The position numbers and the translations under genes were made by a program. A stretch of DNA of 64,000 nt, from positions 3,224,001-3,288,000 of the forward strand of contig JAYWIR010000018.1 in the NCBI GenBank assembly GCA_036172245.1, in the 5' to 3' direction. The first letter of the stretch is position 1. Each line of letters starts with the position of its first letter. The notes beneath the pieces were generated by a model. The model worked only from the letters and a program-made list of their open reading frames with translations, was not told the origin of the DNA and searched no databases. This document shows, in pieces, positions 14,226-56,960 of the stretch. Origin of the DNA: Raillietiella orientalis. Taxonomy: Eukaryota.

Positions 14226-14580
14226 GGTGTGACCACAGAGAAGGGAAAAACTGTGGTGTCACTTCCCGATCGTCGCGGCAGGTGAGGTGCGAAGCGCTCG
14301 AGCGTCAATCAGACTCCGAAACGGAGTCTGACGCAACTGCCAACCGGCGTATCACACACGCGGAGGCGGCAGCGCGCTGGCTAATGCCTTCAGGCGCGAG
14401 GCGCATGCCGCGAGACTGAGAGCTCACCCCGGAGCGCCAAGCAACGACACCGGGAGACGAGCACTCGATTGCGTGCATCACCTCGGAGGCCGGTGGCGAC
14501 CGCACCCTCCAACCCGTCGTGCTGCTGACTGCCCGCTCGCCCGACGAGGTGAGCAAAACGGCCCCAATTTCCCAGCCGTG

Positions 14581-17500
14581 ATGCGAGGAATCGAGTGTTC
14601 TCGTCGTCTGTCCGTCGCGTGTTGGAACGTGAACGGTCTGCAGAACGACGAGAAGAGGCGATTGGTAGCGAACGCCCTGCGCCCCTTTGACCTCGCGCTC
14701 CTGCAGGAGATTCACGTAATCTCCGACGAACAGGCTGCGGAAATCGAGGAGCGCACTGGCGGTGCGGCGACCCACACACGGCGGCGTCGCGTTCCTCTCA
14801 AGAGGAAAATTGGCGGGAGCGGTGCGTGGCATTCGATTCGACGATGATTGGCTAGTGGGCCAACTTGTTGTCAAGTGGTCCGAGTCCATCGATCTCGTCG
14901 TGATGAACATCTACGCGCCGAGTGGCTCCCGCTACCTCGAAGAAAGAATTGCACTCTTCGAGGAAGTGTAGAGCTACTGGCTCAACACCACCGGCCCCCA
15001 AGTGGCGCACCTCGTCGCAGGGGACTTCAATGTCCACCTGCTCTCTGATGAATGGAGCTGCCCGAGGGAGTTCTTGCTGGACATCGAGATGTGCGCGTCA
15101 GTGCGCGCTGCCAACTTGATGGTCGGTGTACCTGAGATGCCAAGATCGCCGGATCACATCTTCCTCGATGACAACCTATATTCTCGTGTGAGGAGGAGAG
15201 AAAGATTGCCGTCCGAACTTTCTGACCATCACAGGTTGGAGTTCGAGCTCCTTCCGCCAGGCAAGGGGCCTCCGTTGAACAACTGGAGGATGCTGGAGGA
15301 CTGGCTTAGCCATCCAGAGGCGGCGGAACATCTCCGTCAGCACCTTCGGGACTTCGTCATCCGCGAACGGAAAAACATCGCCAATCTCGCGGACTGGGAT
15401 TATTTCTTCAAGAGATCGGTCCGCGAGTTATGCGAAGGGTTCCCCTTGCACCGGCTTCCACGCGGCTTTGGAGAAGGCGTCTCCAACAGCAGGAGTTTCC
15501 TGCAGGAGCGCACCATTTCGAGACGCGCGAATGTCAGCCGGCTTGCGGAGTACAAGGCCAGAGACGAGAGCCAGGTCTGGCATTCTGGAGCATCTTGTTT
15601 GCTCGACGAAAAGGGCCAGGAATGCTCAGCACCAGCCGGTATACACCGCATTGTAAAACGCTTTTACTCATCGCTGTATGAGGAAGCGCCAAAGGAAAAT
15701 ATCTTTTCCGAGATACTTCTGTCTCAGGATGCTCCCGTCGTCAGCGAGGAGGAACGCGCACGTCTCGACGAGTCCTTCACAGAGGAGGAAATTTCGTCCG
15801 CCATCGCGGGGTCCAAGAGACGAAAAGCGCCAGGCGAGGATGGGCTCCCCGCGGAGTTTTATCAGTGTTTCGCGGCGGAGCTCACCCTCCTGGTGCTTAG
15901 TCTCTTGTCGCTGATGAGGTTTGAACCCGGTCACGCCGGGACGTTTATTCATGGAACAAACCACAGACTTGAAGGGATACGTATCCCTCCAAGACACAAG
16001 AAACTCCCATACAAAAAGTTCAACCCGGAAAAACCACCTGTACGCAGGCCGTCTTCGAAAAGAAGGGAACGGAGGGAGGGGACACAAAATAAACCCAAAA
16101 AGAAAGGGAGGATGGGGACAGGGATCTTTGGTTTGAAACGTTCCTCTTCTTTCTAGAAGCGCCGCTTGACGATGGCGCTTTCCCAGACGACTTTTCTGGG
16201 AAGATGAGACCACCATGCAGCTGCCTTCATAAGGTTGGCAGCTATCCTGGTGGCGCCCTTACGCTGCGAACTTCCTTCGATCTTACGGCGGGTCGTCACG
16301 ATGAAATGGATGCAACAGGTTGTTGCGATCACATCGCCCTTCTTCATTCCGCCTTCGCTGAGGAAGCGTCGCAGCAGGCTTGTCGCTGATGAGGGATTCG
16401 GGGGATGTGCGAGGGTGCGTCTCTTGCCGAAAGGTGGAGACGCACGCCATCTGAACAACTGGAGTCTGATCACCATGGTAAACTCGGACATGAAGTTGAT
16501 CTTCAAGCTGTGGGTTGTGCGGCTAGGGAGGATCACCGAGTCCTTGGTAAGCCCGGAACAAACTTACGCTGTTCCCGGGCGGTCCATGGACGAGAATCTT
16601 CTGTTCTCCCGCTCGCGCAGCGCAGCAAAGTCGGGCAACGGCCGCTACCGCAGGCAAAAGATATCGGCACAAGCGGCAGGATGGTACGCCGGGTGCCTTG
16701 GCGGTCACAGTCGATCTCCACAAGGCGTTCGACTGTGTGAACCAGGAACTCCTATTGGAGTTTCTGGAACTCCTCGGTCTCCCAGCACAGCCTCTTAACT
16801 ACTTGCGCTCTGGCCCCACGCGCTCACCTGTATTGCTTTCAGTGGCTGCCACGGTATTCCCAGGGACATCCGGCAGGGCAATAGTTTGATCCTGTTGCTC
16901 TTCAGCATCTTTGAGTTGATGCAGAGGGCGTACAGGCTGACGCTGGAGTATCTGCCTAGCTCTTGCTCGGGAACGCCTGCCGTGGCTGCCTATGCAGATG
17001 ACCTGCTTCCTCTGCTCCCCAAGTCCACCCCTGCGTCCAGTGTCGAAGACCTGATTCGTCGGGGAGCGGGCGTGAGCGTGAACGGGAAGAAGAGCGTGGT
17101 CGTTCCTGTGGGTGCGTCGTGGGAGGGCAGTCCGACTGGATCCGCCTGGGGATCCCAACGAGCCGGTACTTCAAGTACCTTGGCGTTCCGTTGGGAACTT
17201 CTGCCAGTCAGAAGCCTGGTCAGGTCATCTCCAGAAAGTGAAGTCGTCGATCGGTCCGTTACTGGAAGGAACCGCCGGAACGGATCGCGGTGTGGAACGC
17301 GTTCGCGGCCCCCCCCCTTTTCGGCCCCCTGCTTTTTGTTTACCCCGTACCCCGCGAGATGAAGAAGAGAAGGGACCAAGGACCTCCTGCGCATCGCTCT
17401 GTGGGGCAGCGGAAGGCCTCGTGTGCCTCTGCAGGACTTGTGCGCTCCGCGTCGGGACGGCGGTCTTAGCCTCCTGACGCTGGAGCGCGTGGAAATTCAG

Positions 17501-18768
17501 CTGCGATGGAGAACCTTGGCCATCGCGGAGAAGTACTGGAGCACCCATTGGTGCGTTCCGGCCCGCCTCCTCACCACACATGTATCCAGAGCGGGAGGGC
17601 TCCCCTCTTTTCTTCTGTGCTCCAGCCGAAAAATAAGAAGATGTGGCCTTCTTCTCGGACGCATGGTCACCCTGGCCAAGGAGAATGGCTGGATGGCCTG
17701 CAGCCCGCCAACTCCAGAGCATGGCTGGAAGGAACAGTTGGCACGTAGGTGAATCTGAACCAGAAAAGTGGTGAATCCTGGAACCGCCTGCGAACCGGCA
17801 TCTATACCCGCTGCACGCTGCGGAACATGCTCGAGTGTCCCTCCAGAAGCATGACCACGGCGGAGACGACCCCACTGACCACGGCACTGCCCTTCTTGAG
17901 GAGGGTGCTCAGCAGCAGCCGAACGCCGAGGTGGCAAGTCTCCTGCCGAATAGCGCGCAAGGAGAAGCTGTTAAGAGATTGGACCACGAGGAAACTGGCT
18001 GACGCCGCGACCCCGAGCGTCCTTCCGCGAGGAATTCAGAGATGTAGCGAGCTGCTGGGCATCCCGCCGGATGACCTAAAGTGGCCCCCGGTATTCAGAG
18101 ACACATCCACCCTCCCCCTCAAGTGGCAGGAATCGGCGCTGCTGCTGTTGCAATGGGGTCTTCCCTGCAACACGCGCCGCCACCACTGGATGTTGGGGAA
18201 GGTGGCATAGAAGTGTACAGTGTGCGGGGAGAAGGAATCCCTCCCCCACCTATTAGTGGACTGCGCTGCCCTCCGACCCTTGTGGGAACGTTTTGCTACG
18301 ACCCTCCGGATGCCTGTCGGCAGTCCTCCCAGAGACGTTGTGAGACTCCCTGCAACCAGCCTCAGTCCTGGCAGCGCTCTGCTGCCTCCGAGGGATTGTG
18401 GCTGCGTGGAGCGCAGCCAACAGAGGAAGCAGCGATAGGGACCATTTCGTACACGCGGGTCGCTACCTGCGAATCGAGATCGGATAATCCCATCTGGGAG
18501 CTATGACGAGGGACCTCGAGGGCATCCTGGAAAGGATGGTCTCTTCCTCCAGCGGACTGTGATCCCTTCCCGGCCCTCAAAAGTGTTTCTTTTTTTTGTT
18601 TCCTTTATTTTTTTGTGTGTTTTTTCCCCCATCCCCCTCCGCTGCCGAGGAGTCTCGAGCCGGTCTGCGAACCGGCTTCCTGGCAGGCCCCTTGAACTAT
18701 TGGCCGTAGCGGGGTCTAGTACCGCAAATATACTGTGTTTAGAAATAAACGCCCCGGCGTGACCGTGT
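14581..18768 (+). mobile_element. L1/Tx1-like non-LTR retrotransposon, near full ORF2 (APE-RT-Cys/His), pseudogenised, with 3'UTR
   Basis: Motifs in the expected order: CWNVNGL, LLQEIH, GGVAFL, NIYAPSG, AGDFNV, SDH, KAPGEDGLPAEFY, LLPKGGD..LNNW..ITMVNSDMKL, SPEQTYAVPGRS, VDLHKAFDCV, AYADD, FKYLG, GGLSL, KCTVCGEKESLPHLLVDC. Multiple stops and frameshifts. Ends AATAAACGCCCCGGCGTGACCG. Confidence 0.93.
15920..16378 (-). mobile_element. 5'-truncated LINE 3' end nested in the RT of the 14.6-18.8 kb copy, with 16-bp TSD
   Basis: Perfect direct repeat CTTGTCGCTGATGAGG at 15904-15919 and 16379-16394. The insert ends AATAAACGTCCCGGCGTGACCGGGTTCAAA. Confidence 0.9.
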
Positions 18769-18769
18769 G

Positions 18770-20083
18770 GGAACTCCCCAGGTGGTCTTCATGGAAAAGT
18801 CATGGAGCATTATCTGGTGCCAAACTTTAGATGTTCTCGTCCGGCAAGCCACCGGTAGCGTAGGACTCGCGTCCTTCCTTGCGCGCCGTCCATGCAGTCT
18901 CATCCACGGCGGACTGCACCTGCGGCAGGTGGCCACGCTGGCGAGGAAAAACGGATGAATCTCGTGACGTTCCGCGAACGGTAGTGCCCGGCTGCAGGAA
19001 ACCGTGCGCATATGAGCGAGGATCCAGGAGCCAGGAGCGGAACAGGTACAACGCTTCCTGTACGCGCGTAACAACAACTGCATGCTCCGGGAAATCCTGG
19101 AAGATCTCGTGAAGAGTGCGTGTGCAAGCAGAACCTCCCTCGCCGCCGCGCTGCCTTCCCTTAGGGAGCATATGGATAGCAGCAGCCTTACAACTAGATG
19201 GGAGGTTACTGTGGAAATCTCCAAAAGGAGGAAAGGGCTGGGCGAGCGGAAACGGGCGATCTCATCTACTCTGCGATCCAGATTTCTGAACCTCGTGGAC
19301 GTTTGCACTGGAACATGCTACTAGGTATTCTGGAGGAAGGCCTTCAGTGACCAGTGCTGGTGAACTCCCCTTGAAGTGGCAGCAGTCGGCAACGATGCTG
19401 CTGCACCGGGGCCTCCTGTGCAACACCCGCCGGCATCTGTAAACACAGGTGTTTGTGAACCCAAACTGTGCGGGAATGGTGTGGGAATGCAAGGTGTGGG
19501 AATCCTTCCCGCACTTCCTAGTGGACTGCGTTGCCCTCCGACCCCTTTGGGGACCCTTTGCCGCCACCCTTGGAACCTCCGGTGGCAACCCCAGAGACGT
19601 TGTAAAGCACCTCTTCCTAAGTGACGATCTCACGTCAGCCGCATCCCTAGCAGCAGTATGCTTCCTACGAGGGATCGTGGCTACATAAAGCAATGTCAGA
19701 GGAGGCCAGAACGACAGAGGCGCCATCTATTTTGCTGTCCTCTTCATGAGGACAGCGTTCAAGATGGCCCTATCTGAGAGTCTTGAAACAGGAACTTGCC
19801 GACATCCTTACAAGGATGCAAAGGGCGCCCTCCAGCACACAATGATCCCTTCCCGAACCCCCCCCCCCTCCTCTTTCTTTCTTTTTACTGTCTTTTTCTG
19901 TTTTGTTTTCTTTTGTTTTTTTCTTCTTGTTTGTCTCCCTTCCCCTCTGCTACCGAGAACCCTGCTGTTCTGCGTGCCAAATCCCGGCAGGTTCCTTGTC
20001 CTTTTTATTAGTAACGTGGATCAAACGTCCTGCCTCAGATATGTAGGTTTATTTTATAAATAAACGCCCAGCGTGACCGGGTA
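18770..20083 (+). mobile_element. 5'-truncated L1/Tx1-like copy (ORF2 C-terminus and 3'UTR)
   Basis: LPLKWQQSATMLLHRGLLCNTRR and ESFPHFLVDCVALRPLW parallel 18.1-18.3 kb; terminal motif at 20059-20083. Confidence 0.85.
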
Positions 20084-27449: not shown

Positions 27450-28355
27450 AAGAAGGTGTTCTCACGTACAGCGGAAGCGAACCGATCTGCACACATGAGA
27501 GGGGCACGAGAGAGGCGCTTGCGACACGATGCAAGATTTGGAACCGAAGGGACAAAAAGATGACGTCGAGTTTCCCGATGCGCTCCTGGATAGTTTCCCA
27601 CGGCTGGATGAATGGATTCTCGAGATCATCTGGAACTTTCTAGTCCAATGAAAAGCTCGGAACATCATACGTTCAAGCAGAAGACTCCAATTAAAGGCAT
27701 TCGAGATGGAGAACTTCAGCTGTGTTCGTGCATTATTTTCTTCATCTGATATGGTAGAATAAACAGAAGCCTGTCTGCCATGCGTCGTCTTCTTCTTGGG
27801 CTGCAGTTGTCATGCGTCCAAGACGCAGACTCCAGGAAAACGTCAGGCAATCTTGTCGCCGCAATGCGTAGCGTGCTATCGGTCCCAGAGTTGAGATACG
27901 GCCAGTCCCGATCTCTTGGGTTTCAGGTTCACAAAAGCCAATTTTTCCTTTTCCTTCCTTTATGCTGTACGAAGGACTCGTTGAGTTCTCCCGTCCAACT
28001 ACCTTAACCGAGATGCCAGCACTGGGCACATGCTCATAGGAAAATGAAGGGGAGATAGAAAAGTCAAGTTTTTTTTGATACAGAGCAGTTGCCATCACCT
28101 AGCAGAACCATTGCTGAGGGGAAGCGAAAAGACTACAATGAGAAAGGCACCTTGCCTCCTCCCCACGATGCATTTTGCAGCAGCTGGAGCAGCGGGTTCG
28201 CTACCGATTGAAGTCATACAGCTGATCCATTTGCTTCTGACTAGAAAAGAGTTCGAGCCACTGTACTTCCGGTGCTCATTGCACGGATGCCTTTTCTCTC
28301 CATTGCGAATGCTTGGACAGTTCAGGAAGACGCGTTCCGCCCCATCTGAAGTATT
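27450..28355 (-). mobile_element. Possible RTE-like LINE endonuclease remnant
   Basis: TSDGAERVFLNC (NxNGxRLxxFC-like) and FLVRSKWISC (IDxxLVxxRW-like); heavily decayed. Confidence 0.3.
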
Positions 28356-28358
28356 TCG

Positions 28359-28918
28359 TTTTTCACCCGGTTGTCCCTTGGCATTTATTATCAAGAATAA
28401 TGAGAATACATTTATGTGGTAAGACACTGCGTTCTACGACGTGCTTTGAGCCTGCCGAAGACCGGTACACAGACAAGCGAGGTCCGCATCGGCAGCGAAA
28501 GAAAAGGGAAAACCGAAAACAAAACTAAACAAAAAAAAAGAAAAAAGAAAGGTTTCATTTGGGAAAGGGAAAATGAAGGAGTCGAAAAGGAGGAAACAGA
28601 GGAAGAGACCACTGCTTGCTTTAAGGAGTCATCTGAATCCTGTGCAGGATGCTGACAAGTTCGGTCCGCATGTTGCCCAGGTGAGACCATCTCTTGGCGA
28701 TCTCCAAGAAGATCCACTGCCAGTGGATGGCCTCTTTTTCATTTTGTCCTCTTCTTCCTGCGTACCAGGCCATCCCTATCCCGAGAAGATTGCAGAGAAT
28801 TTCAAGGGACGCGGCTGGCGGCAGTGCGGCACGCCCGAAGAGGTGTCTGAAAATGTTCCTGGGGTCGCACACCGGGATGCCTAGGGTCCTCGCAAGGCGA
28901 TCTCAAAGGGATCGGAGG
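28359..28918 (-). mobile_element. 3' part of the L1/Tx1-like copy that is interleaved with the virus
   Basis: RSL*DRLARTLGIPVCDPRNIFRHLF...EAIHW..; terminal motif AATAAATGCCAAGGGACAACCGGGTGAAAA at 28359-28389. Confidence 0.85.
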
Positions 28919-29362
28919 AATCAGGATTTCGGAATGAAGGTGTCATATAGAAACATGTTGATGTTTCAATCGGCGAGTTTACCTGAGCATTTTGGAGATA
29001 TGTTCAATTTAAATTACGGAAGTGTATCGAATCGTATAAGCGGTTTTGAGGAAACTCCTGGTTGTTGGACTCGGTATTTTGGTGTTCGTGGTATTCGTTG
29101 GTACAGTCGTGGATTTGTTGTGGATAAGAGGACACGAGGAACTGTAAATGTGGAGTCTATGAGTCGTTGTCCTTGGGTGGATGCTGGTGAGGGTGCGACT
29201 TTGGACTATGAAAGTCGTATCCAAGTTCGTTGTGGGCGTTTCCACATAATGAAGCATATGTCTGGTGTTGATATACCAGATGCTTTGAAAGCAGACTGTA
29301 GCCGTGGTGTGTGTCCAAAAAATGGTCGAATGTTAAGTGGATATACCCAATATTTTGTGTAA
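28919..29362 (+). pseudogene. cap: Endogenous CRESS DNA virus capsid protein, C-terminal 147 codons
   Basis: Open frame NQDFGMKVSY...WTRYFGVRG...SRCPWVDAGEG...TQYFV*. The RYF and PWxD motifs recall circo/cyclovirus-like capsids. It converges on the Rep 3' end, is followed by AATAAA, and is GT-skewed unlike its flanks. Confidence 0.7.
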
Positions 29363-29417
29363 CGCACAAATACTATGTTATGTTTAGAACACCCAGAGAT
29401 GTTGGGTTGTACACATA

Positions 29418-29438
29418 AATAAAGTTAATTCTTTTATT
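29418..29438. terminator. Convergent poly(A) signals of the viral 3' intergenic region
   Basis: AATAAA on + at 29418-29423, after the cap stop, and AATAAA on - at 29433-29438, after the rep stop at 29488. Confidence 0.7.
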
Positions 29439-29487
29439 GAGAAGCTGGGGAGGAGGAGGGAGACAAAGCTGACAAGGAGGAGTCAGG

Positions 29488-29738
29488 TCAGTCGCGGGCT
29501 TGCGCTGTACTAGGGCTTGAAGTGCAAGTCCAAGGGAGAATGGCTCCTTCTTCATTCATCATCCAATCAGTGAGACGATTTGCATCATGACTGGAAATAT
29601 TCCTGACAATCCATCTATCTGATGACATTTTTTCGTAGTTTGGCTCCCAATCAGCAAATACAATTATATGAGGGGGTTGAAAATACTTGATTGACCCTGA
29701 TATTTCGAGTGCAAGATAATTCCATTTTTGAGGCTTTC
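29488..29738 (-). pseudogene. rep: Endogenous CRESS virus Rep, C-terminal SF3 helicase part
   Basis: ESLKNGIILHSKYQGQSSIFNP/HIIVFADWEPNYEKMSSDRWIVRNI...ARD*: motif B', motif C (VFAN-type) and Arg finger (DRW); one frameshift near 29670. Confidence 0.9.
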
Positions 29739-30220
29739 ACAGTCTAGAAGCATGTGCGGGAGAATCTCCCTGATCCCGCACCTGTCGCTCCGCGCACCTA
29801 CACGCCCCCAGGTCCGATGATGAAGGCGCTCTTTGCCTGGGAGAATCCCATGCGCTATCAACAACGGCCACTTCTGTCTCTTGAGGGGAAAGATGCCACT
29901 GTCCAGCACTCTAAAGACCATTTCACGCCTTCCAGAAGGGTTGTAAGCAGATCCCCCAGTCCAGGTGTTCTGCTCCACCAAAGCAATCATCTTACAAAGT
30001 GAGGTATTTCGTTGGGAATCCAGGAAGTTTATCGCATCAATCGAACTTCATAGATTGCCCCTTGCACTTCCGCTCTCACTCTTTGCACCCTCAAAAGCGG
30101 ACATCCTGTGCAACATCAAGTCAAGACAACTTTTTGACAGAAAGCTTCCCTACTAGCAGGAGTTATGCACGGTGACTATTCATGGTTCATCTTCTTACAT
30201 GAGGACCAGAGGACCACTCC
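29730..30220 (-). mobile_element. L1/Tx1-like segment lying between the two viral pieces
   Basis: FPLKRQKWPLLIAHGILPGKERLHHRTW...DRCGIREILPHMLLDCESL is the family's C-terminal Cys/His region and joins in frame to 28914 when the viral piece is removed. Confidence 0.85.
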
Positions 30221-30947
30221 TCTATGATGATTATCTTTTGGCCTGCATACATGTAGGAAGCATCTGCTTTTTTGCAGTTATTGAGGTATAGGGTGTCGTA
30301 TTTTAGGCAAATGTCTTTTGCGATGGTTGTTTTTCCGGAGTTTCCTTGGTAATCTGTATACCAATGGATGCATCTGTCGTTTGCATCTTTGGATATTATT
30401 CCTAATAAGTTTTTTTGCCATAATTGAAGTAGTTTTCCTTCCATAGCGTCTGTTTGGAAATATTTTGTAAATCGGATGCTGTCAGTTATGAATAGTCTAT
30501 GTTTATCGTATATTTCGGGTTTTTCTCGCCACATCCATCTTTCTGTTTTTCCTTCTAGTATCCACTGTTGTATCTGGAAGAATTTTTTGTGGTATATGTA
30601 TTTAATTTTAATTTACCTGTTTATGAACTGATTGTTTTGATTCTATTTAGAGTGCTCCATATGTCCATGGGTTTTGGTCTTCTCTTTCACAGTATTGCTC
30701 GGGTGTTCCTCTGCTTGGTTCTGGGTGTGCTCTCTTGAATTCTTGTAATTTTTTAAAGTTTTGGTATGGTTGTAGCTTCGTTAAGCTGGAAGTATCCCTG
30801 TATGTGTTTCGTTCCTTGGATTCCTATTTCTTTAACTAATATAGCATATGAACATTTATCTTGTAGCCACTTTTCGATGTTTTCTTCTTCACATGTTGTG
30901 TAGTTATTCACTGTTAAGCACCAGTTGTTTGTCACAGCATAAGGCAT
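30221..30947 (-). pseudogene. rep: Endogenous CRESS virus Rep, HUH endonuclease plus Walker A/B
   Basis: Motif I WCLTVNN, motif II KHIQGY, motif III region AHPEPSRGTPEQYCERE, Walker A RCIHWYTDYQGNSGKT, Walker B start QKIIII. At least two frameshifts and in-frame stops at 30.6-30.75 kb. Confidence 0.95.
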
Positions 30948-30980
30948 CTTGTTTTGGGTGGGTGGGTTTGAATCTTCTTC

Positions 30981-30987
30981 TTATATA
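30981..30987 (-). promoter_or_regulatory. TATA box upstream of viral rep
   Basis: TATATAA on the minus strand, about 34 nt upstream of the rep ATG at 30947. Confidence 0.6.
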
Positions 30988-30998
30988 GTGCTTATCTG

Positions 30999-31028
30999 GG
31001 TCAAGAGGATTGTATTACCCTCTTGACC
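30999..31028 (+). other. CRESS virus origin of rolling-circle replication (stem-loop)
   Basis: Perfect 10-bp stem GGTCAAGAGG/CCTCTTGACC with loop ATTGTATTAC. The nonamer TTGTATTAC (31010-31018) differs by one base from TAGTATTAC and lies between the divergent rep and cap starts. Confidence 0.93.
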
Positions 31029-31034
31029 TTGAGC

Positions 31035-31175
31035 ATGTTAGGACGTGGTGCGAATCGTGTTAGCAAGATAAGGAGGCGCCGAGCTATCGCTCGGCGTCGC
31101 AGGATTAATTTTTTGAGACGTCGTACTTATATTCGTTATCGCAATTATTCGAAGTATAGTTGGTCTGGTCTGTAG
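31035..31175 (+). pseudogene. cap: Endogenous CRESS virus capsid, Arg-rich N-terminus (truncated; not in the ORF track)
   Basis: MLGRGANRVSKIRRRRAIARRRRINFLRRRTYIRYRNYSKYSWSGL*, starting 6 nt after the origin stem. Confidence 0.85.
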
Positions 31176-35400: not shown

Positions 35401-36289
35401 TGCTGAGCGGCTTTCCATGAGCGCTCCCACGCACACCGAGGTCCGCCGGCATCGACGAATGCGAGGTTCGGGAAACACCAGGTCAGAAACTGTGCGACTC
35501 TTCTCGGCACCCATGACCGGGTGGTCTCTTGAATACGCTGGTCGCTTCTTTCTCTGGCCCTCTCGCAAAACACGCAGACCAGAAGGTACCACCTCCCCTT
35601 GAGTAGCGATTTAAGGAAAACCACCAACCACTCTCACTCAACCACTAAACACTAGACATCGCCACAACCACTACCTCCGTGCCTCACGATTAAGCTAACG
35701 ACAAACATCTCGTGGTATTTGCCGCCCATACCACCGTGACATCCGAAGCTGACCTGTTCCTACGTGCCTCCACCTATGTTTTCACCCAACATAGAATGCG
35801 CCCCCCGAATTCGTGGGTTCACTCTAGGAACGTTCCTACCCTCAGGCAGGGGAAGCAGAATCAGACCCACCTTCCATGCCACGCAATCAGTGCAGAGGTC
35901 GCGGCCATTGAGCATAATTCTCGAGGCGATCAGTAAGCTAGAAGGTCTCACTTCATTCTTCCTCCACGGAGGAACAGGGCGCTGGGCACATTGATCCACG
36001 TAACGAACACCAATACTACCATGAATCGCCCCAACCTCAACCCGAGAGCACACCCCTGGAAGGAGAAAGAAGGGAGCGGAAAAAGTGCGGGTCCTGACCC
36101 TTGCCATCGCTTTTGTCACAGTTCTATCCACCCCTCGGAACAGAAGCGGAAGCGGACAGTCGGCAAGGAGGGGGACCTTGTAGCAGGAAAGAAGAAACTA
36201 GCAGGTCGTCGCTAGAGAGGCAGGTGGAAGCGACGCAGCGTCAACTGGTATCCTCGATGAAGGGTTGCTCCATTCAGCAGAACGCCTGA

Positions 36290-38667
36290 ACATTCTGCCA
36301 TCACCTGAAACGGCGAACCCTCCCATCCATGTGTGCACCTACCTTCTGGATGGCAGATTCTCAATTAAAGGATGTCAAACGAAGTTGCTTGCCAGACTCT
36401 GGGCTGACCGACTCGGGCGGGTAGCTGAATCCGTGTTCAGCCCGGAGCAGACTTACGCAGTTCCCGCATGAACCATGGAGGCCAACTTGTTCCTAGCCAA
36501 CACCTGGTGGCAGTTGCAACAGGGCAAAGCACAGGCGGATCAATAGAATCCTGGATTCTCCTGTGAGCAGGAAGGGGAAGACCAAAGAGAAGAACCGTCA
36601 TCCTTGCAGTCGATTCGCGAAAAGTTTTCGACGACATCGACCAGGAACTTTTTCTGAAGATACTGGAGCACATGGGATTTCCGTTCGTCTTCTTAGACTC
36701 TCTGCGCTCCTGCTGGCGTTTTGCGTATACCCTTTTTTTCAACGGCCGGTACATGTACAGTGAGCCGGTTCGGCGTGGCATAAGGCAGGGTGACAGCCTG
36801 AACCTCCTGCTCTTTAATATCTATTTCGAGTTGGTGCTGAGAGCATATAGGGAGACTCTGGCAACCCTGCCCAGCTCGTGTCCAGGCATGCCGCCCATGT
36901 CAACCTATGCAGACGATCTCTTGCTGCTGCTCCCCGAGTCCACCCCGGCTTCTGCTCTCGAGGAGTTATTCGAGTTGTTCAGCCGCGGGATGGGCTTCGA
37001 GGTCAACAGGGCGAAGCTGTGCATCATAACAGTTGGTGCGGCGCGGGCAGGACGGCTGGGCTTGATCTGCTTGAGGTTCCTCACAAGCGGGTTCTTTAAA
37101 TACCTAGGCGTTCAATTGACAGACTTTTGCTTAGCAGAAGTCTGGTCCGACAGTCTCCAAAAGGTGGAGTTGGCGATCGGCCCGTTCTGGGACGGCAAGT
37201 TTTACTTGCAGAAACGGGCCGCAGTGTGGAAGGCGTTCGCGGGTCCCCTCCTTCGCTCCGTGCTTTTGTTTTCCACGCCATATGCCAAATAAAGAAAAGG
37301 ACAAAGGGCCTCCTAAGAAAAACACTGTGAAGCACTAGGAGGCCGCGCGTCCGTCTCAAAGAATTGTGCACTCCACTTAGAGACGGTGGACTAGACCTCG
37401 TGACTCTGGAGCGCATGGAACGACAGCTACGATTCCGGAAACTCGCCCTTGCGGAGAGTTATGGACAACGCTATGATGCGTTCCCATATGCCTACTCGCA
37501 AGTAGAGTGACTGGCCGCGAAGACTTGTCCTCGATCCTTGTGGCTAACGAGCGCAGTCTGAACCATTGTGGTTTTCGCTGCGTGATTTGGTTACCCTGGT
37601 GAGGGAGAAGACGTGCATCAACTGCCTCCCCGCGAACTGCACACCCTGGCATCAAGAGTTTGTTTCTGACCGGACTAAAATCAACGGCAACGGCGAGTCG
37701 TACTATTCCAGCCTCCGTAGAGGCTGGAACGCTGCACACTCCTGCAAGAGATTGTTTCGAACTCACGGAAACTTTTGTGGTAATCATTAACCCCACTTGT
37801 CTTAGTGCCTCCATAAGAGACGTGGACAACTCGGGAGCAAGCGGACGCCGCAATGCCGAGTGTCCCGCCTAAAGGACTTGTGCGCAGGGGAGAGCTGCTC
37901 GGCATACCCCCGAAGGAGGTGAAGTGTCCTCTAGAGCGTTGGGACAGTAGCAACCTCCCCTTGGAGTGGCAAGAGACGGTGTGGCTAGCTTTGCATTGGG
38001 GACTCTTTTGCAGGGCATCCCTCTCTTACTGGACTCGTGGGAGTGCGGATGACAGCTGTTACAAACTGCGGAAAAAGGGGAGCCTTCCCTCATCTGCTAA
38101 TTGAGTGTATCGAGCACCGACCCATGTGGAATCCACTGTCGTCGATCCTGAAAATTCTGGATGGCGAACCAAGAAACATTTTCCATCGCCTCCTAATGCG
38201 AAACGCTCTGACAGCAATCATGGGCGGGGCAGTTTTGTGTACCATATGCGGAATCCCCACAGAAACGTCTGCACCCATGCGAGACCACAACAGCGGGAAA
38301 TCCACTCACTGGACGGTCATCTCCATCGAGAAAACTTCCCTATCAGGCCGGCTACAAACTTCGCGACCAGCAACTGTCAGCATCCAAAACCGGACGAAGA
38401 GGAACACGCGCGGCAAACAGTAATATGTTGTCTGTCCAACGTTTCCCGGAGAACATTGCTCTCCGTTTTTGCTTTAGTTTATTCTTGTGTTTTTACTTTT
38501 GCGGATTAACTCCCTCATCGCCAGCGGAGAAGACTGCCGGTCCCAAAGGACAAGTGCTAGGAGACAGGCGGAACCACGTGTTATGCCTGAAAGAACTTAA
38601 AGAAATTATTATAAAATATCATTTCCAAAATTTTGATACAAAATGCCCCGGTATATGCGAGTGAAAG
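36290..38667 (+). mobile_element. 5'-truncated L1/Tx1-like copy, RT through 3' end
   Basis: KLLARLWADRLGRVAESVFSPEQTYAVP, AVDSRKVFD, GIRQGDSLNLLLFNIY, TYADDL, FKYLGV, DGGLDL, LPLEWQE, PHLLIEC; terminal AAAATGCCCCGGTATATGCGAGTGAAA. Confidence 0.92.
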
Positions 38668-39293
38668 ATCATTCCGCAGCACATATCCTTCGAAAACACG
38701 TAACCGCGCAAACAACTTCACTAACAAGTGTTCGTACGCACAGGCAATGCTAACGCCGCTTCGATGGAAGAAACTCTGTGCATCCTGTGAAGCACGCTGG
38801 AGAGCACTTCAACGGATCTTTACGGGTTCGGCCATCCCTCTGCGATTTTCGAAACGCAAAAGGGAGCAGGGTGGCACCGGTCCTGCCACCTTCGAACTCT
38901 CCCCGCATCACGACGTTCGCTACGGCTATGCTCTAAGAAGCAGCTGCATGAGCGCCACACGAACGAAACACTCCGGCGAAATCGAGATCACCCACACCGT
39001 CGGGGCAGCCGTGGACTCAAAACTTTCGCAGCGACGGACAGACCTGCTGACGGTAGGAACGCGATGAGGAAGCAACCATCCGAGTCAATTACGATGAAGC
39101 ACGTCAACCGTGCACGTCAACCGGAAATCAAGTACGGGCAAAGCGTTTCCGCACGAGGGTTCGAGGCGAGACCGAGCCAGCCTCCGAAGATTCAGGAAAG
39201 GTTGGCTTATCCTGCCTGTGGGTGCTCGGCAGCGTGACACGGGAAGGAGGACGGGGGCGATTCCCCCGCTTTCGAACTTTTCCGCACCTCTGA

Positions 39294-45350: not shown

Positions 45351-48300
45351 CATCCTTCTGTCAGAGACACGCTATCTTCGATGAATTCTCTGGCCATTTC
45401 TACTTCCATTTCTAGCTTCTCATCTGGTAATGCCAATACCCACCCCTCCAGTCTTTGGTCCTCTCTTCTCCATTATCTTCCACCCAATTCAACCATCCGG
45501 CCTCTTCGGGACGCGAGCCGCCACAGAAACTGGACCGTTCACCTTGTCGATCGAGCCAGATGCAGCTACCTCAAGCACTCGACTCTCAACAAGCGAAATG
45601 CTTCCGTAGCTTGCGATTGCACCCTAACACGAACGATGGGTCCAATTTGCAGCAGAGATAGATGAAAGAGTCGTATATTGCAGCAGGGACTGAGTTTATT
45701 GCATGGTGCTTCAGATTGTGACGTGCAAAAGAGGCGGCGCAGAAAGTGACGACGAATGGGTGCCGTGCAGCCAGTTCTCCCTTCAGGAGACGCTGCAAGG
45801 CGAGCACGGTTTCTTCCTGTTTCTCAACACGGACTCTGCTGGCAGCGTGCAGGTGGGGCACTGGACGGCCTGGACCGCCTTTGGTCTACAAGCATGAGTC
45901 AGAAAGGCATCTCGCTCGCCCGCTGCCTGGTCCTCGGGCAAAGACGTGCTTTGGAAGTCAGCTGAATGCAAGGCACTTTCAGGTTCCTTGCTTTTGGCCC
46001 TCTACTTCTTTGTTCGGCCGCGTTTTTCGACATCAGCTGGCTTGTGTGATTTCGTCCTTGACTGGCTTTTTTCAAATGAGTGTGGTTGCTTCTTGTGCAC
46101 GGAACGGACATCAAACTTCCTCATCCACTCCGTACTCGGGCCTCAACAGTGGTTCGCAGTGCATTGCTAATTTTGCTGAGGAGATTCTTCCAATTTTTTG
46201 CGGTGAAGGCCAGCAAAACAGACTCTAAGTACGACAGCCGATATTACCAGAGTCCCGAGAATCCTAAAGTAGTCTGTATTCGCCAGCAGGCTGGTTAATG
46301 AGGCCTGCATCGGGGTGGCATGGAAGGAAAACGAGCAGTACAAATCCAAAAATGGAGCTATCTATGTGGTGTAAAAGCAAAGAGAATCACTGGTAGGTAC
46401 CTGGGATCCTCTACATCCGAGAAATATGCATCCCTTGAAGTAGCTTGGCCACCTTTGCTCTTGTTCGAGCATTCCAATTCTGCTCAGCTGCCGACAGATT
46501 CGCGCGAGCGATCCCAGAGATAAAACTTTTCTTCCCTGTACCCGAGGGCAATCAAGGTTCGTAGCCCTGTACGGTCAGCAGATCCTTCGTCAGCAACCAT
46601 GTCACTGGACGCGCGTTGAGCTGCCGAGGTACGGTTCCCGTTCACGATCTGCGAGCCTGCTTGGCTCCCTCTGTGTGAGACTCGGGTCACCACAATATAC
46701 AGCGCACAGACTAAAGACACCAAATACAAACGTCATCTTTCGTCCACGCTAGAGCGGGGTAGACAGGGACGGCAGGCAAGGCGGATCGTCGGCTCAATCT
46801 GATATGTTCGGCATGCATAAGCTGAACGTTAGCAATCCGACCAGCGTTCCAGACAGCACCCACTCAGCACCAAGTCGCAGAGGCGCTCCGATGGCAGCCA
46901 TAATCTCCACCATCGGGAACGGCTGTTAGAAGAGTGCCCGTTTCTCTTAGCCAATAGTAAAAGTGCAGCTCCCAAGCAACTGTAGATGAAAGATGAGTCC
47001 CAGAAGACCATTGTATGAGGGGATGACTCAGAATCCCGCAAGAGCAGGACATCGGAAGGGGATGAGCTCTCTTGTCTGAGGTAATCCAGAACACAAGATG
47101 CCCCGATATAACAGACTTGATGCTCTGCCGCAGCTCTCACACATGGCCGACTTTGCGCACGAGCAGTAAGGAAAGACTAAGGGAAGACGGAAACTGAGAT
47201 GGGATTCTTCCTAGTTGAACACGGCCGGCCGCAGCACATCAGGGTGCCTGAAGAGGGTGTGCGACTGCAAGAAGGCTCTGGTATTGTGCACATCCTCTCC
47301 AAAGCCAGAGGGTAGAAGAACCAAAGGAATGCGTTCAAAGAGCTCTCGGACAAGAAATTTGTGGGTCTTTGAAGTGGATCTGGATGTAGTCTCTGCAGTC
47401 AGCATGCCAAGTACGACATAGCAAAGCAGAATGCACGGGTCTGCGAGACACACTTGAGATTTCACTTGGAAATTGAGGGTTAATTTGTAAAATGCAATGT
47501 TGCTTTTTCAGGTTCTGCTGGGGTGGATGACCTAACTGCTACCGAGCGGAACCAAGATGAAACTGAGCAGCATCAAGTGAGACCTGTTTGAAAGGATGCA
47601 AAGTCCAGGGTGACCTTTAAACACCTGACTGTACCCAGAGAAAAGGTGGCTGCAAGACGAAAACAGAACAGGAAGCTCCTAGGATGCACGCTAATGCCTA
47701 CACATTACTCAAGCATGAGAAGACAGGCCAGAACCATCTACATGGTGTGTTTAAGTGATACCGTGTGTTCGGAAGGGTTTATTTTGGCACTGGAATGAGA
47801 TCGATGTGCTGTGCACAAGCTGTAAGCAGCAGTTGGTACTCCACAATACCCTCAAAGAATTTCATTACACGAATTCTGCGTAAAGAAACCAGCAAAGTTG
47901 GTCTGTTTCTGTTCACACATACTGCAGTCCAGAATGGCGTAACGGAAAAGCAGACACCTGATCAGGTGTCTGTACCATCCAAGTGTGTGAACAATTTTCC
48001 CTAAACGCAATAAGAATGAAGTGAGGTTTTACAACCTGATACATCCGCTGGAAGTTTTGTGCTATCACATATCACAAAACAGGTGAAATAATACGGAGCC
48101 TGGAACATAGAAGGAATCCATAATAATAGAAAGGAAATTGAATAGCAATGTATAACTCCTGGTATTGTACATAAGCCTCTCTATCCAAACAGAATAAGAT
48201 TCAAATAGTAATAGTTTATCACCTGGTAGCTGAAACAACCTCGTTCCCATCTAATCTGACTGCAAGCATCCAGTATTCTTTTAGGGAACTTCTTTTCGGC

Positions 48301-49182
48301 ACCATCCAGACACTGGACTGTAAACTAGGAAGAAGAATTTTGCAAGGTGTGTGCAAAAAGCGAATCTGAGCTCCACTTGGTCATTTAGAAATCAATAAGG
48401 CAAGACTGGAGAGTCTTGAATAAAGTAAATCTGTAAGTAAAAACTCTATTGCAGTTAATGTGTCCTGAAATGAAAAGTAAAAACAAAAAGCAATGATGGT
48501 GGGAATCTGGAAATGAGATAAATTCTGCTCGCAGGTTTCAAGATGAGTTGAAAGAGAACCTCTGTGAATAAACGAAGCTTCTATTTGGATCTCACTGTGG
48601 ACTAAAATGTGATTAAAGCAATTCGAAAATAATGGATCTGATGTTCAGTTCCCTCAATTTGAAATGGCTGAGATCAGACAAAGGTGACCCTCGTTTGTGG
48701 CAAAGAACACATTCATTACAATGATCTCAGCTTTTTATAAGTCTGGTAAACTGTTAAAAAGTGATATGTAGACAAGAAACATTGATGAACTCGCAGTAAC
48801 AAATATTTTTCCATAAGCTTACACTTCAATATTAAAAATGTAGTTTTACAGTATTCTAAGTCACTAGAACTTTCAGGACTTTCAGGATTGGCTAATCAAG
48901 TACTTTTACTTCTAGAAGTTATCAAAAAAAAATTGGGGCTGAACAAAGTATTTGTGTGAGTAGAGCTTTGAAAGCATATGCACATATAACAAAACTGTAA
49001 TGAACTGGCTTGCAAAATCACACTTCTTTGTAAGTACAAAACATCATGAATGACTAGAAAATAAAACTTTTCTCAGTATTTATTTTATACTGATATAAAA
49101 TAATGTACGCGTTCTTATTGATATTGCTCACAAAAAAAATCCTTATCTAACACAAAGAATGATGAACAAAGATGATGGAATA

Positions 49183-52100
49183 TCAAATTTTGGGCACTTT
49201 TGCATTACTTTCATTAGATGCATCTTCACCAGCTCTCTTTTTACCTTTTAAAGTATTTCTCTTTTCTCCTTTTTTAACTAAAAAGAAAAACAGAAATGTT
49301 TTTTGAAAACATGCATTACAGGCTCCTTACAGAGTTTCTTTTTAGTTCGAAGCTTTAATTGATCTTGCTTCGCTTTTTCCAAAAATACTTTTTCTTCATC
49401 ACCTGTTAACACATTAATATCAACTTCTAAATCACCTACTGTGATTTTATCTCCAAATTTTTCAATCACCTATAAGTTTGATATGACAGTTATTTTCCGG
49501 AACAAACATATGAGATTATATAAATTCACTTGAATTCTACAATTATCTAGCAAGAGTTGCATCTTACTGTTCTGATATTCATAAATACACTATCAATGCA
49601 AACATTACACTTTTTGCAGAATCCTGCTTAGATAAACGAACCCAGGCTTCACTGTCACCACATTTGAACTCTACAAAAGCAACTTGTACATCTGCTTCCG
49701 ATATTTTTGATTTTATGTCTTCTCTAGTTGTAGTATTGTTAGCAGGAAACCCCTTTAAGTGAAGAACTGTTCCAGAAGGTAAAGAAGAAGTATATTCAGG
49801 CTTCAGCTCGATTTGCTAGCAAAATCATTTGAAATTAATGTCCTTCGGAATTAAGCATCAAAGAAAATATACTTTTTTTTAATTTTTAATTTGCAAAATG
49901 GTAAGGTTAATAATGACAAGTTCCTTACCAATTGAAGATTACCATACATGCATGGCAACTGTTTAATAATAGATCAATTTATGAAAATAAAGCTATTAAT
50001 TTTTTTTTGTAAACATTCGCTTCTCATTTACTACAATAATACAATTACTATGATACTAGTCTAAGTCACCTGATTTTTTTTTATTTTCCTATTATTTTTC
50101 CCACTTTTATAAAGCAACCTCTTTTCTTCAATACGAGTTTTCCTGAAAAGGGCTACTAGCCAGCTTTCAAGTTATTTCTTCTCATTACCACCATTTCTTC
50201 TCAATATCATTATTAAGAAATTTGACAGATGCATTTTGCAAGAATTTTTCGGCTGCTTCTGGTGTTCCAAACAAAACCAAAACAGATCCTTTGAATATCC
50301 ATTTCTGCTCAAGTTTGTTGAAAAACTTTCTCATCTAGGAAAAGAAACACACATGAACAAAACCGACTATTCCAATACATGTTATACCCGAACATTTTCC
50401 ACATTTTCAAATGACTGAAAAAACTCCAACAACACATCAATATCAATCTCTTCTTTTGGAAAACCTTTACAATACACTGTCCTATTAAGAATGCTAGTCT
50501 TATATTCTTCATTGAATTCAGGAAGTGGTTTATCCTTTTTGCGTCTAATTTTTGTTCCATCACTGTTTACCTACATATAAGTTTTCTGTAAGCTTCTATT
50601 AGCAAATCGTGTGTGAAAAAAAAAAAGCTATTCAGAAAATTCCGTGAGATCATGTGGTTCCTTTTTAAAATAACAAATACTTCAAATAAGAGAGATCAAA
50701 GGTACTCTTATTACCTTATGGGATAATAACTGTATAATTAATGAACATATAATTCCTTTTTGTACTTCATAAAGCACGTACCCAAAACAATAATAATAAA
50801 AGTACCTAACAAAAGCACTATCATATAAGTGCCCTGAATAAAAAATTCAATTTTTGGTAAAAAATCATAATCACAAAACATCATTAAATGTTAAAATTAG
50901 GATTTTACATTACATTACACCACATTTTTAAATTACATCACTTTTTACACACAAAGAAAAACTTCATAACTTTACATCAAAACTTGAGTTTCATACTTCA
51001 ACGAGGTCACTAGTTTGTAATGCAGATCCAATCACTTCAACATCTGTAGTGATAGACGCCAATCTGCGGAACTTTATCATTGTATTCATTGGAACCCAAC
51101 CATCTTCATTTTTGATCAGGTTTTGCATGAATTTATCTCTTGATAGGTTTACATCACCAAAGTAGTACTGGAATGGTAACACCAAAATGCATGAACTGGA
51201 TCATGAGAAACATTTGTTTAAATTAAGAATTGTAATTTTTCTTTCCAATTCATGTAAGAAAGAAACTAAAAACTCAGGGATAAACATACTAAGTTTTCCA
51301 CTGTTAAGTGTTTTAAACAAGAAAACAATGAAATTAAATAGCAATCAATAGTGATGCTATTTCAACTGAAATTTTCACAACCAGCAAAAGCAATCAATAA
51401 ATACAGAACTGAAAAAATTCAAATTTATTTCAGTGAAGCAATGTCCCCTTCAAGCATGCAAGATTCAGTAAGCAACAAATCACTGTGAAGAGCATAAAAT
51501 CAATGGCCACAGACCAATGATTTGTTGTAGAGTTTTATAAAAATTACAGACTGGGCAACTAAACACTATAACAATACATGTGAATATAACTCCATTTAAT
51601 ATTCATTATAATCTAAAACCAAAACACTCGACGTGTAATTTTCAACAACACTAAACATGTTTTCGAAATACTTTGTTCACTGAATATTTCAACATTTATT
51701 CTTGCACTTTTTGAGAATTTTTTTTTTTTTGTATGTGAAATGCATCGATCCTAAAATTATACACGTTAAAATTTTGTTTTCAAAAATCAATAACTTTCAC
51801 TAAGTCCTTCACATTCATGAATATGAGAAATGGACTTTCCAAGATGCAATGGTCTGATCATAACAAAAACAAATGAAAAACTGTGACTGAGTAATTAAGT
51901 ACTTGCAAAAGTCCTGTACTTTCTGTAACCAAAGTGCATTTTTTACTTTGTAAGACATTCAAAAAACTTCTACTGATCATCAAGAACAAAGGCATTGGCT
52001 GTTAGCAGCTCACAAGTATAATTTACAAAGAAGAATATGAAAGACAAATGTAATACTTCAAAGGAATATTTCCGAGTATCAAAGAACAAAAGCCACTGTG

Positions 52101-53315
52101 ACAGTATTTGAGTTTTAAAAGTTTTCATCATCTTCATGTGTACATGTATTGTGTGATATCCTTTGCGAAATTGATAATTCACAAACTAAGGTGCGTTACA
52201 ATGACAGTGAGGAAATCACATTAAAATCTACGAATTTGCAGGTATGCAGCATCAGACACAAAAAAATGAAACAGATGGTTGAATTCCACAGCAAACAGAA
52301 ACATCTATTTTCCTATGATTTCACACTTTAATGTTGTAAAAAATAGCAACGCATCCAATCTAGAAATATTAAAAACATTGCTTTTAAAGTTATAATTTAC
52401 TGCACATCAATCATCAATCATCAAGAAGTAATTAATCAATCTAAGAGTAAACTCTTTAAAAGGATGTCCTGCATGAGGAGATAAAACTAGACTGTGCTTT
52501 AGAGAGAGATTACACTTACATAAAACTGCTACAAGTTAGAGTTCAAGTGAACTATCATAGAACAAATTAGAAATGCAGATATGTGTATTACACTTAGGTT
52601 ACTTTCAAAAAAAATCCTTAAACAGGCTACAAACTTTATTTGCAATTAATGATTTTTAATGAAATTCCACAAGGCTTTGGGCTCAATTATGACCTCAAAA
52701 TTCACACGTTTGCTTATAACTAACGGAGAGTAAAATGACCTTTTGTTTAATGCATCAAAAATAGCGAGTTTTGAGAGTTCAGGGCAAACTTAAGTATTCC
52801 AACATAATAAAAATAACAGACAATTCTTCAGCACCTTTATAATTTAATTTGGACTTCTGTTTACTTCAACTATTATTAGGAATAGCATACTAGTAGTAAT
52901 TGCAAGAACTCAGGAATTATTAATTACAGGAAAAGTAATAAAGGCCTAGAAATTGACCAGAAACTGTTTTCTTCTTTATCATAACTCTCTGCATTAAGGA
53001 TACAAATCGGGTATTTAACACTTGAAATGAAACCCATATCATTTCAATTTCATTTCAAGTTTCTTCTTTTTTGGACAAAGTGATGAAGAAACAACATGAT
53101 ATTACAATTGATGTGGGCGATATTTTGGGCAAATTTTAAACGGTGTTCACTATATATATCTACTATGATTGTATATTAAAATGTAAGCAGATTTTAACAA
53201 ATCAAACGCATACTCATTAGTTTTTTGTTATTTTACCCAAATTTTACCAATGACATGAGAAGCATGAATACAAAACTTTTACCTCTATTTGTTTTCGAGC
53301 CGCTTGCGCTGCCAT
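49183..53315 (-). CDS. SSB: La autoantigen / SS-B homologue (La motif, RRM1, RRM2, basic C-terminus), ~348 aa, 8 coding exons: 53315-53283, 51167-50997, 50570-50388, 50334-50189, 50142-50070, 49815-49609, 49469-49331, 49277-49183
   Basis: Spliced translation MAAQAARKQIE|YYFGDVNLSRDKFM...GWVP...F.RL|VNSDGTKIRR..KPLPE...NRTVYCKGFP|MRK...FKGSVLVLF|...GTVLHLKGF...TREDIK...VAFVEF..GD.EAWVR|...VLTGDEEK.FL|...GKKRAGED...KVPKI*. All introns are GT-AG and phases are consistent. The exon 4 donor could be 3 nt earlier. Confidence 0.95.
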
Positions 53316-56764: not shown

Positions 56765-56960
56765 TGGAATAGACCAAGATTCTATTCTTGAACGCTTATC
56801 AGTTATGTCTGGAAAATGTTTTTCCATTTCTAGTTTGGATGATTTGCTTGATGCTTGTCGTGAAGATGCTGAAGATTTGCTTCTTAATTTGGGATTTGGA
56901 TCTACTCAGTTGTCAAGCTTGGAATCTCGAATTCCAGCGCGTTTTCTAAAACCTTCAAAA
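56765..56960 (+). CDS. Internal exon of a KRAP/SSFA2/ITPRID/Tespa1-family protein (IP3R-binding domain)
   Basis: SISSLDDLLDACREDAEDLLLNLGFG....LESRIPARFLKPSK matches the family pattern S..LL....DPEE.L..LGFG......IP.RF..PS. Flanked by AG and GTATGA. Other exons were not resolved. Confidence 0.8.

Follow-up and report, generated by a model that had tools for sequence, protein, structure and literature searches.

A probable endogenous copy of a Rep-encoding single-stranded DNA virus, interleaved with LINE sequence, in a contig of Raillietiella orientalis

Background

Elements derived from circular Rep-encoding single-stranded (CRESS) DNA viruses are common in animal genomes. A stretch of 64,000 nucleotides from Raillietiella orientalis (assembly GCA_036172245.1, contig JAYWIR010000018.1, positions 3,224,001 to 3,288,000 of the forward strand; this whole stretch is called the window below, and positions are counted from its first letter) contains, at 28919-31175, a locus that has the appearance of such an element, broken up by pieces of a long interspersed nuclear element (LINE). 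What kind of molecule was the source of this locus, how much of it survives, and by what route did it become interleaved with a retrotransposon? The original prediction, made from the nucleotide letters, was of a nearly complete and circularly permuted virus genome with both a Rep gene and a capsid gene. In our assessment, the locus is, with a probability of roughly 80%, what is left of an ambisense virus of small size, from the phylum Cressdnaviricota, in the form of a dead endogenous copy, the two halves of which were captured in or next to a resident LINE.

A split viral genome and its Rep gene

On the plus strand, the pieces follow one another in the order LINE piece B, viral half 1 (V1), LINE piece A, viral half 2 (V2), and host DNA (Table 1). 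On the strand that is sense for both Rep and the LINE, the order is host flank X, V2, the LINE block made of U and A, V1, and LINE B. Read in this direction, V2 consists of the antisense start of the putative capsid gene, the origin, and Rep up to Walker B, and V1 continues with Rep from just before motif C, followed by the polyadenylation signals and the antisense end of the putative capsid gene. Together, the halves contain about 1.78 kb of surviving viral DNA by our estimate (818 and about 961 bp), in good agreement with the 1.76 kb claimed at the outset. A composition scan and a Markov comparison both detect a shift at every junction between viral and non-viral sequence, and the composition of the right flank changes after about 31200.

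The N-terminal piece of the open reading frame (ORF) that is not Rep is found at the right end of the locus and its C-terminal piece at the left end, so that the circle appears to have been opened inside this gene. The idea of circular permutation is thus sustained as far as the ORF ends are concerned, but the two abutting pieces alternate with LINE sequence and do not amount to a simple linear copy.

Rep is encoded on the minus strand, with an ATG at 30947 and the end of the reading at 29488. Its translation contains, in canonical order, motif I (CLTVNN, 30920-30903), motif II (HIQGY, 30806-30792), motif III (YCERED, 30694-30677), Walker A (GNSGKTT, 30345-30325), Walker B (IIIIEE, 30234-30217), a motif C-like stretch (IIVFAD, 29667-29650), and an arginine in the finger position (SDRW, 29622-29611). 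The consensus forms of the three nuclease motifs are uuTuxx, HuQ and YxxK, respectively; motif III of the present protein has R in place of the usual K. All motifs that had been predicted are therefore in place; the uninterrupted span from 30947 to 29488 that went with them is not, as the motifs are spread over three frames and the gene is broken by a frameshift, a TAA codon and a block of non-viral sequence.

The Viral_Rep family of Pfam (PF02407) matches the minus-strand translation of 30753-30980 with an E-value of 5e-8 and 33.5 bits, compared to the curated cut-off of 26. The best match of the Rep nuclease among solved structures is PDB 7kii (E-value 3.8e-5), with nanovirus Rep entries coming next at about 0.09. 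PDB 7KII is, by its entry, the HUH nuclease domain of duck circovirus Rep. The 51-residue alignment with it extends over motif I (xxTxNN) and motif II (HxQG), i.e., over the first two motifs only, the rest of the domain being found here in another frame. The match above the Pfam cut-off and the similarity to the circovirus structure bear out the proposed origin from a CRESS virus. Judging by the sequence, homology identifies the nuclease half of Rep, and for the helicase half there is the order of the motifs only.

The rep gene is damaged in three places. It is split by the LINE block; it is frameshifted near 30750-30765, within an A-rich run, where a sequencing error may be to blame; and its frame is stopped by TAA at 30647-30649. 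A candidate intron with GT and AG at its ends would bring the motif-III frame and the helicase frame together in phase, and Rep introns are recorded for cyclovirus-like genomes in the relevant part of Rosario et al. (2018, PMC6186406). The viral copy presumably has no coding function today.

The origin region and the putative capsid gene

Rep and the Arg-rich ORF diverge from an intergenic region of 87 nt, which contains a TATA element and a stem-loop of the kind nicked by Rep proteins. The nonanucleotide TTGTATTAC (31010-31018) is on the strand of the Arg-rich ORF, and this is its single occurrence in 64 kb. Folded as DNA, the stem-loop has an energy of -11.6 kcal/mol (z -5.06), and none of 200 shuffled sequences is as stable; perfect 10-bp stems of this kind are found three times in the whole window, the stem at the origin being one of them. 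The stem-loop is 52 nt away from the Rep ATG, and the Arg-rich ORF starts 7 nt past the stem. At the convergent ends of the two genes, the AATAAA of the plus strand follows the stop codon of the non-Rep ORF by 56 nt, and the AATAAA of the minus strand follows the Rep stop by 50 nt. The convergent signals, the TATA box and the perfect stem-loop are all found where they had been placed by the original prediction.

The two ORF pieces on the strand opposite to Rep, one of 147 codons and the other Arg-rich, are likewise located as predicted, and both are open. Their assignment to a capsid gene is suggested by position, by orientation and by the Arg-rich start. An Arg-rich stretch beside the origin is the usual mark of the N-termini of CRESS capsid proteins. 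Disorder at the N-terminus is the criterion for capsids applied in Rosario et al. (2018, PMC6186406), and capsids of the Cressdnaviricota are said, in the part of Dennis et al. (bioRxiv 10.1101/207399) that deals with them, to diverge past the point of detection by sequence. Measured against the usual sizes of capsids, the putative capsid gene may lack some 100-200 nt. Strictly, the sequence attests to Rep, an origin, and two ORF pieces with no assigned family.

Leftward, the putative capsid frame extends without a stop through a further 78 codons of antisense LINE sequence, which results in a chimeric ORF of 225 codons (28685-29362, plus strand) with internal ATGs; this extension is probably due to chance.

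Interleaving of viral and LINE sequence

About 475 bp inside rep (29738-30215) are non-viral. This block has higher G+C content than the viral sequence around it and a LINE-like Markov score, which sets in below about 30215, and its first 240 bp or so are derived from LINE ORF2. The minus-strand translation of LINE A bears the Cys-His motif of the ORF2 copies in the window (tblastn E-value 2.5e-10 to 18091-18276); at the nucleotide level, blastn aligns 29740-29953 with 18263-18049, and 29740-29887 with 7715-7879. In blastn, LINE B matches six further copies within the window, one of the alignments being that of 28483-28919 with 7296-7709 (E-value 6e-37), and tblastn gives matches to it as well.

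The copies of the LINE that span the junction allow one to see what the interrupted sequence looked like. In all four of them (c7, c18, c19 and c36) the sequences matching A and B adjoin: at 7709/7715 in c7, at 18270/18263 in c18, across a 15-nt gap in c19, and at ORF residues 40/44 in c36, where residues 10-40 of ORF 37989 match piece A and residues 44-144 match piece B. Because A and B adjoin in every spanning copy, V1 is seen to be a clean insertion in the LINE, and alignment of the junction indicates that no more than 3-7 nt of LINE sequence were lost at its site. The LINE block, in turn, splits rep just as cleanly, leaving approximately 5-8 open residues between IIIIEE and WNYLAL. Circovirus Reps have six residues between Walker B and this stretch, from which it follows that the two viral halves would abut within about 10 nt.

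That virus and LINE interrupt each other is a sign, found within the sequence itself and unusually clear, of real integration. As the origin, moreover, is intact and internal, the locus is best explained by true integration through illegitimate recombination and not by a chimera with free virus. Flanks made of LINE and host DNA are on the same molecule as the viral sequence, and rep has been frameshifted, stopped and interrupted, all of which is characteristic of endogenous elements. The viral copy seems young when set beside the LINE copies of the window, as it has few lesions in about 1.5 kb of coding sequence and they are about 60% identical to each other.

Table 1. Features of the locus and of its surroundings in the window
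Feature	Position	Strand	Description
LINE piece B	28351..28919	-	ORF2 tail after the Cys-His motif and 3' end of a non-long-terminal-repeat (non-LTR) retrotransposon; left flank of the virus
Viral half 1 (V1)	28920..29737		About 818 bp; 3' part of the non-Rep ORF, convergent poly(A) signals, Rep C-terminus; cleanly between LINE B and A; virus-like composition
Putative capsid, 3' part	28919..29362	+	147 open codons, TAA at 29360-29362; convergent with rep
Convergent AATAAA pair	29418-29423 (+), 29438->29433 (-)		
Rep C-terminal piece	29488..29736	-	IIVFAD (motif C position), SDRW (Arg-finger position)
LINE piece A	29738..29980	-	ORF2 Cys-His region; directly upstream of piece B in intact copies
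Block U	29981..30215		Host- or LINE-like composition; contiguous with A; parts the Rep halves
Viral half 2 (V2)	30216..31175		About 960 bp; Rep from its N-terminus to Walker B, promoter and origin region, start of the Arg-rich ORF
Rep helicase piece	30217..30573	-	Walker A GNSGKTT and Walker B IIIIEE
Candidate intron	30616->30574	-	43 nt, GT...AG; proposed from sequence
Rep HUH nuclease region	30647..30947	-	Motifs I, II and III; matches to Viral_Rep PF02407 and PDB 7kii; frameshift and in-frame TAA
TATA element	30980-30988		TATATAAG on the Rep strand, TATATAG on the other; about 33 nt before the Rep ATG
Origin-like stem-loop	30999..31028	+	Perfect 10-bp stems 30999-31008 / 31019-31028; 10-nt loop ATTGTATTAC
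Putative capsid, 5' part	31035..31175	+	46 codons, of which 15 are Arg and 2 are Lys; ends at the host junction
La-type gene exons	49281-51200	-	La domain 50994-51200; RRM_3 (xRRM) split 49582-49815 / 49281-49469
KRAP_IP3R_bind exon (PF14722)	56748-56963	+	E-value 1.6e-9; best clue to an animal host

A possible route of integration

The source of the locus would have been a genome of about 1.9-2.0 kb. On one strand would have been a rep gene, perhaps with the 43-nt intron, for an HUH nuclease of the Viral_Rep type joined to a P-loop helicase; on the opposite strand would have been a second gene, the product of which, probably the capsid protein, began with an Arg-rich stretch. The 3' ends of both genes would have had poly(A) signals in convergent arrangement. 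Double-stranded viral DNA may then have broken at two places, one inside the capsid gene and the other inside rep, past Walker B and ahead of motif C, and the halves, with their order and orientation kept, could have been captured at two breaks that were some 480 bp from each other and lay within a resident LINE, truncated at its 5' end, or next to it. Alternatively, a single event of template-switching repair, in which host and viral templates alternated, might have produced the same order of pieces. The integrated copy would have acquired the frameshift and the stop later.

Given capture, the chance that order and orientation are both kept is 1 in 8. Capture in a single event is the account with the fewest coincidences, and we put it at about even odds; the integration itself appears, from the sequence at hand, to be much firmer than the single-event model. 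Models with two or three steps of rearrangement are disfavored because they require new breakpoints to fall exactly on the older junctions. Nicking by Rep at the origin was apparently not the route, since the origin is intact and internal and the junctions are in cap and rep, and an intermediate in the form of mature mRNA is disfavored by the presence in V2 of the origin, the promoter region and the unspliced candidate intron. Integration by way of breaks in cap and rep, and not at the origin, bears on the question of how single-stranded DNA viruses become endogenous.

Evidence to the contrary and alternative explanations

Several observations weigh against the interpretation given above. In the origin, TTGTATTAC agrees with the consensus NANTATTAC, as listed in Rosario et al. 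(2018), at eight of nine positions, and position 2 is T. For Rep, the original prediction proposed comparison with both Viral_Rep and superfamily 3 helicase profiles, and only the former gives a match above the cut-off: the helicase piece aligns with PF00910 from Walker A to Walker B, as it should, with an E-value of 0.048 and 14.6 bits, below the cut-off of 21.5, and continuing the translation across the LINE block, with each stop replaced by X, brings no improvement (E-value 0.11). The AlphaFold model of the helicase is unusable (predicted local distance difference test, pLDDT, 38.4), a PDB sequence search with the helicase gave no match, and the C-terminal piece of Rep, searched alone against Pfam, matched no family. 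The segment 29440-29580, which includes the last 45 or so codons of Rep and the 3' untranslated stretch, is purine- and GC-rich and host-like in composition, and it has no match elsewhere in the window; it may belong to the virus itself or be a third piece of foreign DNA. Block U and the right flank X also lack matches elsewhere in the window, so that the boundary of V2 is approximate. No target-site duplication was seen around the LINE or around the composite, and no other viral fragments were seen within the 64-kb window, the element being present there in a single copy.

The putative capsid pieces fare no better: they have no credible family in Pfam, PHROGs or NCBIfam, and in particular no capsid family. 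A HMMER search with the product of 28919-29362 against 1.84 billion representatives gave 0 matches at E<=0.001, a sequence search of the PDB gave 0 matches, the best score in the Atlas was 0.77, which is below the useful range, and a scan of IMG/VR gave no pattern match. The AlphaFold model of the capsid piece, built from the single sequence, has a pLDDT of 30.5 and is likewise unusable; being uninformative about the fold, it leaves the predicted capsid label, for which no profile or homologue was found either, unconfirmed.

It could be argued from these results, i.e., from the want of a capsid profile, homologue or fold for the products of both 28919-29362 and 31035-31175, that the source was a replicon consisting of Rep and an origin, either a capsid-less circular Rep-encoding molecule or some other mobile element; 'circular molecules' without a capsid gene are indeed mentioned among arthropod CRESS genomes in the portion of Rosario et al. 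(2018, PMC6186406) concerned with them. Such a source, however, would leave unexplained the 15 Arg in 46 codons beside the origin, as in the N-termini of CRESS capsids, and the 147-codon frame that is open, has its own AATAAA and converges with rep; capsids of this phylum are, besides, known to escape sequence detection, as the same part of Dennis et al. has it. We consider a capsid-less source unlikely.

The other explanations concern the way in which virus and LINE were combined. The window is rich in fragments of the LINE, and the block that interrupts rep consists of LINE ORF2 in one orientation and has, on the V2 side, an end like that of a 5'-truncated copy, so that one might think of simple nesting, in which such a LINE was retrotransposed into rep of an intact virus that had already been integrated. 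An insert made by target priming must, however, include the 3' end of the LINE, and this end is found beyond V1 (28351-28919), not beside piece A; nesting would therefore have to be followed by further rearrangement, the ends of which coincided with existing junctions, and the expected target-site duplication was not found. This makes nested insertion very unlikely.

A more active part could be ascribed to the LINE if its reverse transcriptase had switched between LINE RNA and viral nucleic acid of Rep sense in the course of one target-primed insertion. The LINE and Rep have their sense on the same strand, serial template switching would account for alternating colinear pieces of two templates, and circoviral elements located inside non-LTR retrotransposons are known from carnivores, according to the pertinent section of Dennis et al. 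(bioRxiv 10.1101/207399). V2, with its origin, promoter region and antisense capsid sequence, and with the candidate intron still unspliced, does nevertheless not have the content of a mature mRNA, the points of switching are not at the ends of templates, and the composite is not flanked by a target-site duplication; capture by the retrotransposon has, in our view, little to recommend it.

The least probable explanation is an assembly chimera or contamination, in which a virus that was free, or that came from a parasite or a food organism, was stitched into a host contig, as the very different composition of the viral part and its flanks might suggest. At the four virus/non-virus junctions, there is no sequence in common by which the pieces could have been joined in error, the two parts of the LINE that enclose V1 fit to 3-7 nt, and the copy, with a frameshift and a stop in rep and a part of the capsid gene missing, is below one unit.

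Relatives and precedents

The preferred interpretation, that of a dead endogenous cressdnavirus, raises the question of its relatives. Our word-seeded searches with Rep require shared 5-residue words, and the pattern scans require 8-residue patterns, so that close relatives only are excluded by them. Within this scope, word-seeded protein searches with the three Rep pieces retained 0 of 69, 0 of 3, and 0 of 726 candidates (E<=0.001 or 0.01), an index-free search with Rep not having been made. Scans of IMG/VR and of metagenomes for relatives of Rep gave 2, 77 and 5 pattern matches, none of them confirmed; the 24-mer of the origin is absent from IMG/VR and from the metagenome collection, and the phage collection contained no match. 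The claim that no relative of this virus has been sampled thus holds for the collections searched by words and patterns. With regard to Circoviridae, no match to Circo_capsid was found in Pfam and no close Rep in the word-seeded searches.

In its layout, the element is reminiscent of the cycloviruses. Their genomes, as characterized in the available part of Rosario et al. (2018, PMC6186406), are about 1.7-1.9 kb in size, ambisense, with the nonanucleotide on the capsid strand ('type II') and an Arg-rich capsid start, and some of their Reps have an intron, for which there is only a candidate here. The nonanucleotide, however, is TTGTATTAC in our element and not TAGTATTAC or similar, and its Rep is too divergent for significant shared 5-residue words. 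The likeness is one of layout only, and it does not imply membership.

Endogenous circoviral elements (CVe) of vertebrates, surveyed by Dennis et al. (bioRxiv 10.1101/207399), are likewise germline copies of small ambisense single-stranded DNA viruses with Rep and Cap. By the account given in that text, they are mostly derived from rep and decayed by stops and frameshifts, and some of them, including the carnivore elements, are within non-LTR retrotransposons or flanked by them; in four cases both rep and cap are present, and cyprinid fish have full genomes in tandem. The present element differs from CVe in that word-seeded searches link neither its Rep nor its putative Cap to any sequence of Circoviridae, and in that it is a single copy, smaller than one unit and split in two by a LINE.

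Joint integration of rep with cap, here with a putative cap, into a eukaryotic chromosome is shared with the whole-genome CRESS integrations of Entamoeba and Giardia, which were used to tie a virus lineage to its host (Kinsella et al. 2020, PMC7493932, in the part that concerns them). Those hosts are protists, and exogenous relatives exist at 73-84% nucleotide identity, whereas here the host is an animal and no such relatives were found. Rep-mediated integration is assumed in the same part of that work; the origin in our locus, by contrast, is intact and internal.

Near-complete CRESS integrations with rep and cap are rare and already published, at least to the extent covered by these sources. 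The element belongs to a known class, and what is unusual about it is how complete it is, how isolated it stands in sequence space, and that it is interleaved with a LINE. It supplies the gene layout, the origin, the signals, and most of the coding sequence of a cressdnavirus that is absent from the collections searched, and it ties this unsampled virus to an animal germline. A much stronger statement, to the effect that this is the sole trace of a new lineage of animal cressdnaviruses at the family level, with a capsid without relatives, and that it arose by a single multi-template capture of virus and LINE distinct from Rep-mediated integration, with the two viral halves copied or ligated into the germline by the machinery of retrotransposition or of break repair, is in our opinion improbable. 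If a single multi-template event did take place, it would represent a route of endogenization of single-stranded DNA viruses other than the Rep-mediated one, and an element in a block rich in LINE fragments could then feed a small-RNA defense against the living virus.

Host context and the LINE family

The left 47 kb of the window, with about 55% G+C, are packed with LINE fragments in both orientations, and the sequence from 48 kb onward (48000-58000) has about 30% G+C and contains host exons. Repeat-induced point mutation was considered as a source of the AT-rich part, and its indices do not fit. There are no Rfam families in the window. Four of the 91 short ORFs that were scanned contain host domains: La (E-value 3.5e-18), RRM_3 (1.6e-8 and 5e-4) and KRAP_IP3R_bind. 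The last of these families is one that we take to be confined to animals, and the host, as far as can be told from these domains, is likely an animal. A comparison of the reverse transcriptase with the Atlas pointed to Streptophyta or Bacillariophyta on the basis of 1-5 records, which is too vague an indication of the host to be of use. Exons for La, xRRM and KRAP_IP3R_bind in the same window agree with the animal host that had been proposed, and the metazoan-type genes are 18-26 kb away from the viral element. In the La-type gene, the two exon parts of RRM_3 are separated by an AT-rich intron of about 130 nt.

The longest copies of the LINE in the window are at 14300-18800 and 35500-38700, both on the plus strand. 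The first of them has a trace of the endonuclease at 14332-14844, which is the sole match among 146 ORFs, and motifs of the GDFN/SDH type. The second contains RVT_1 at 36567-37292, followed by the Cys-His tail at 37989-38423; the RVT_1 match in the LINE sequence of the window has an E-value of 1.7e-13. Alignment of six copies places the 3' terminus of LINE B at about 28350. The 3' ends of this family (28351-28400, and copies at about 18700, 19990, 20650, 7300 and 24930) have no poly(A) tail, and the conserved terminus is formed by AATAAA and then a short GC-rich inverted repeat, with a T-rich tract upstream.

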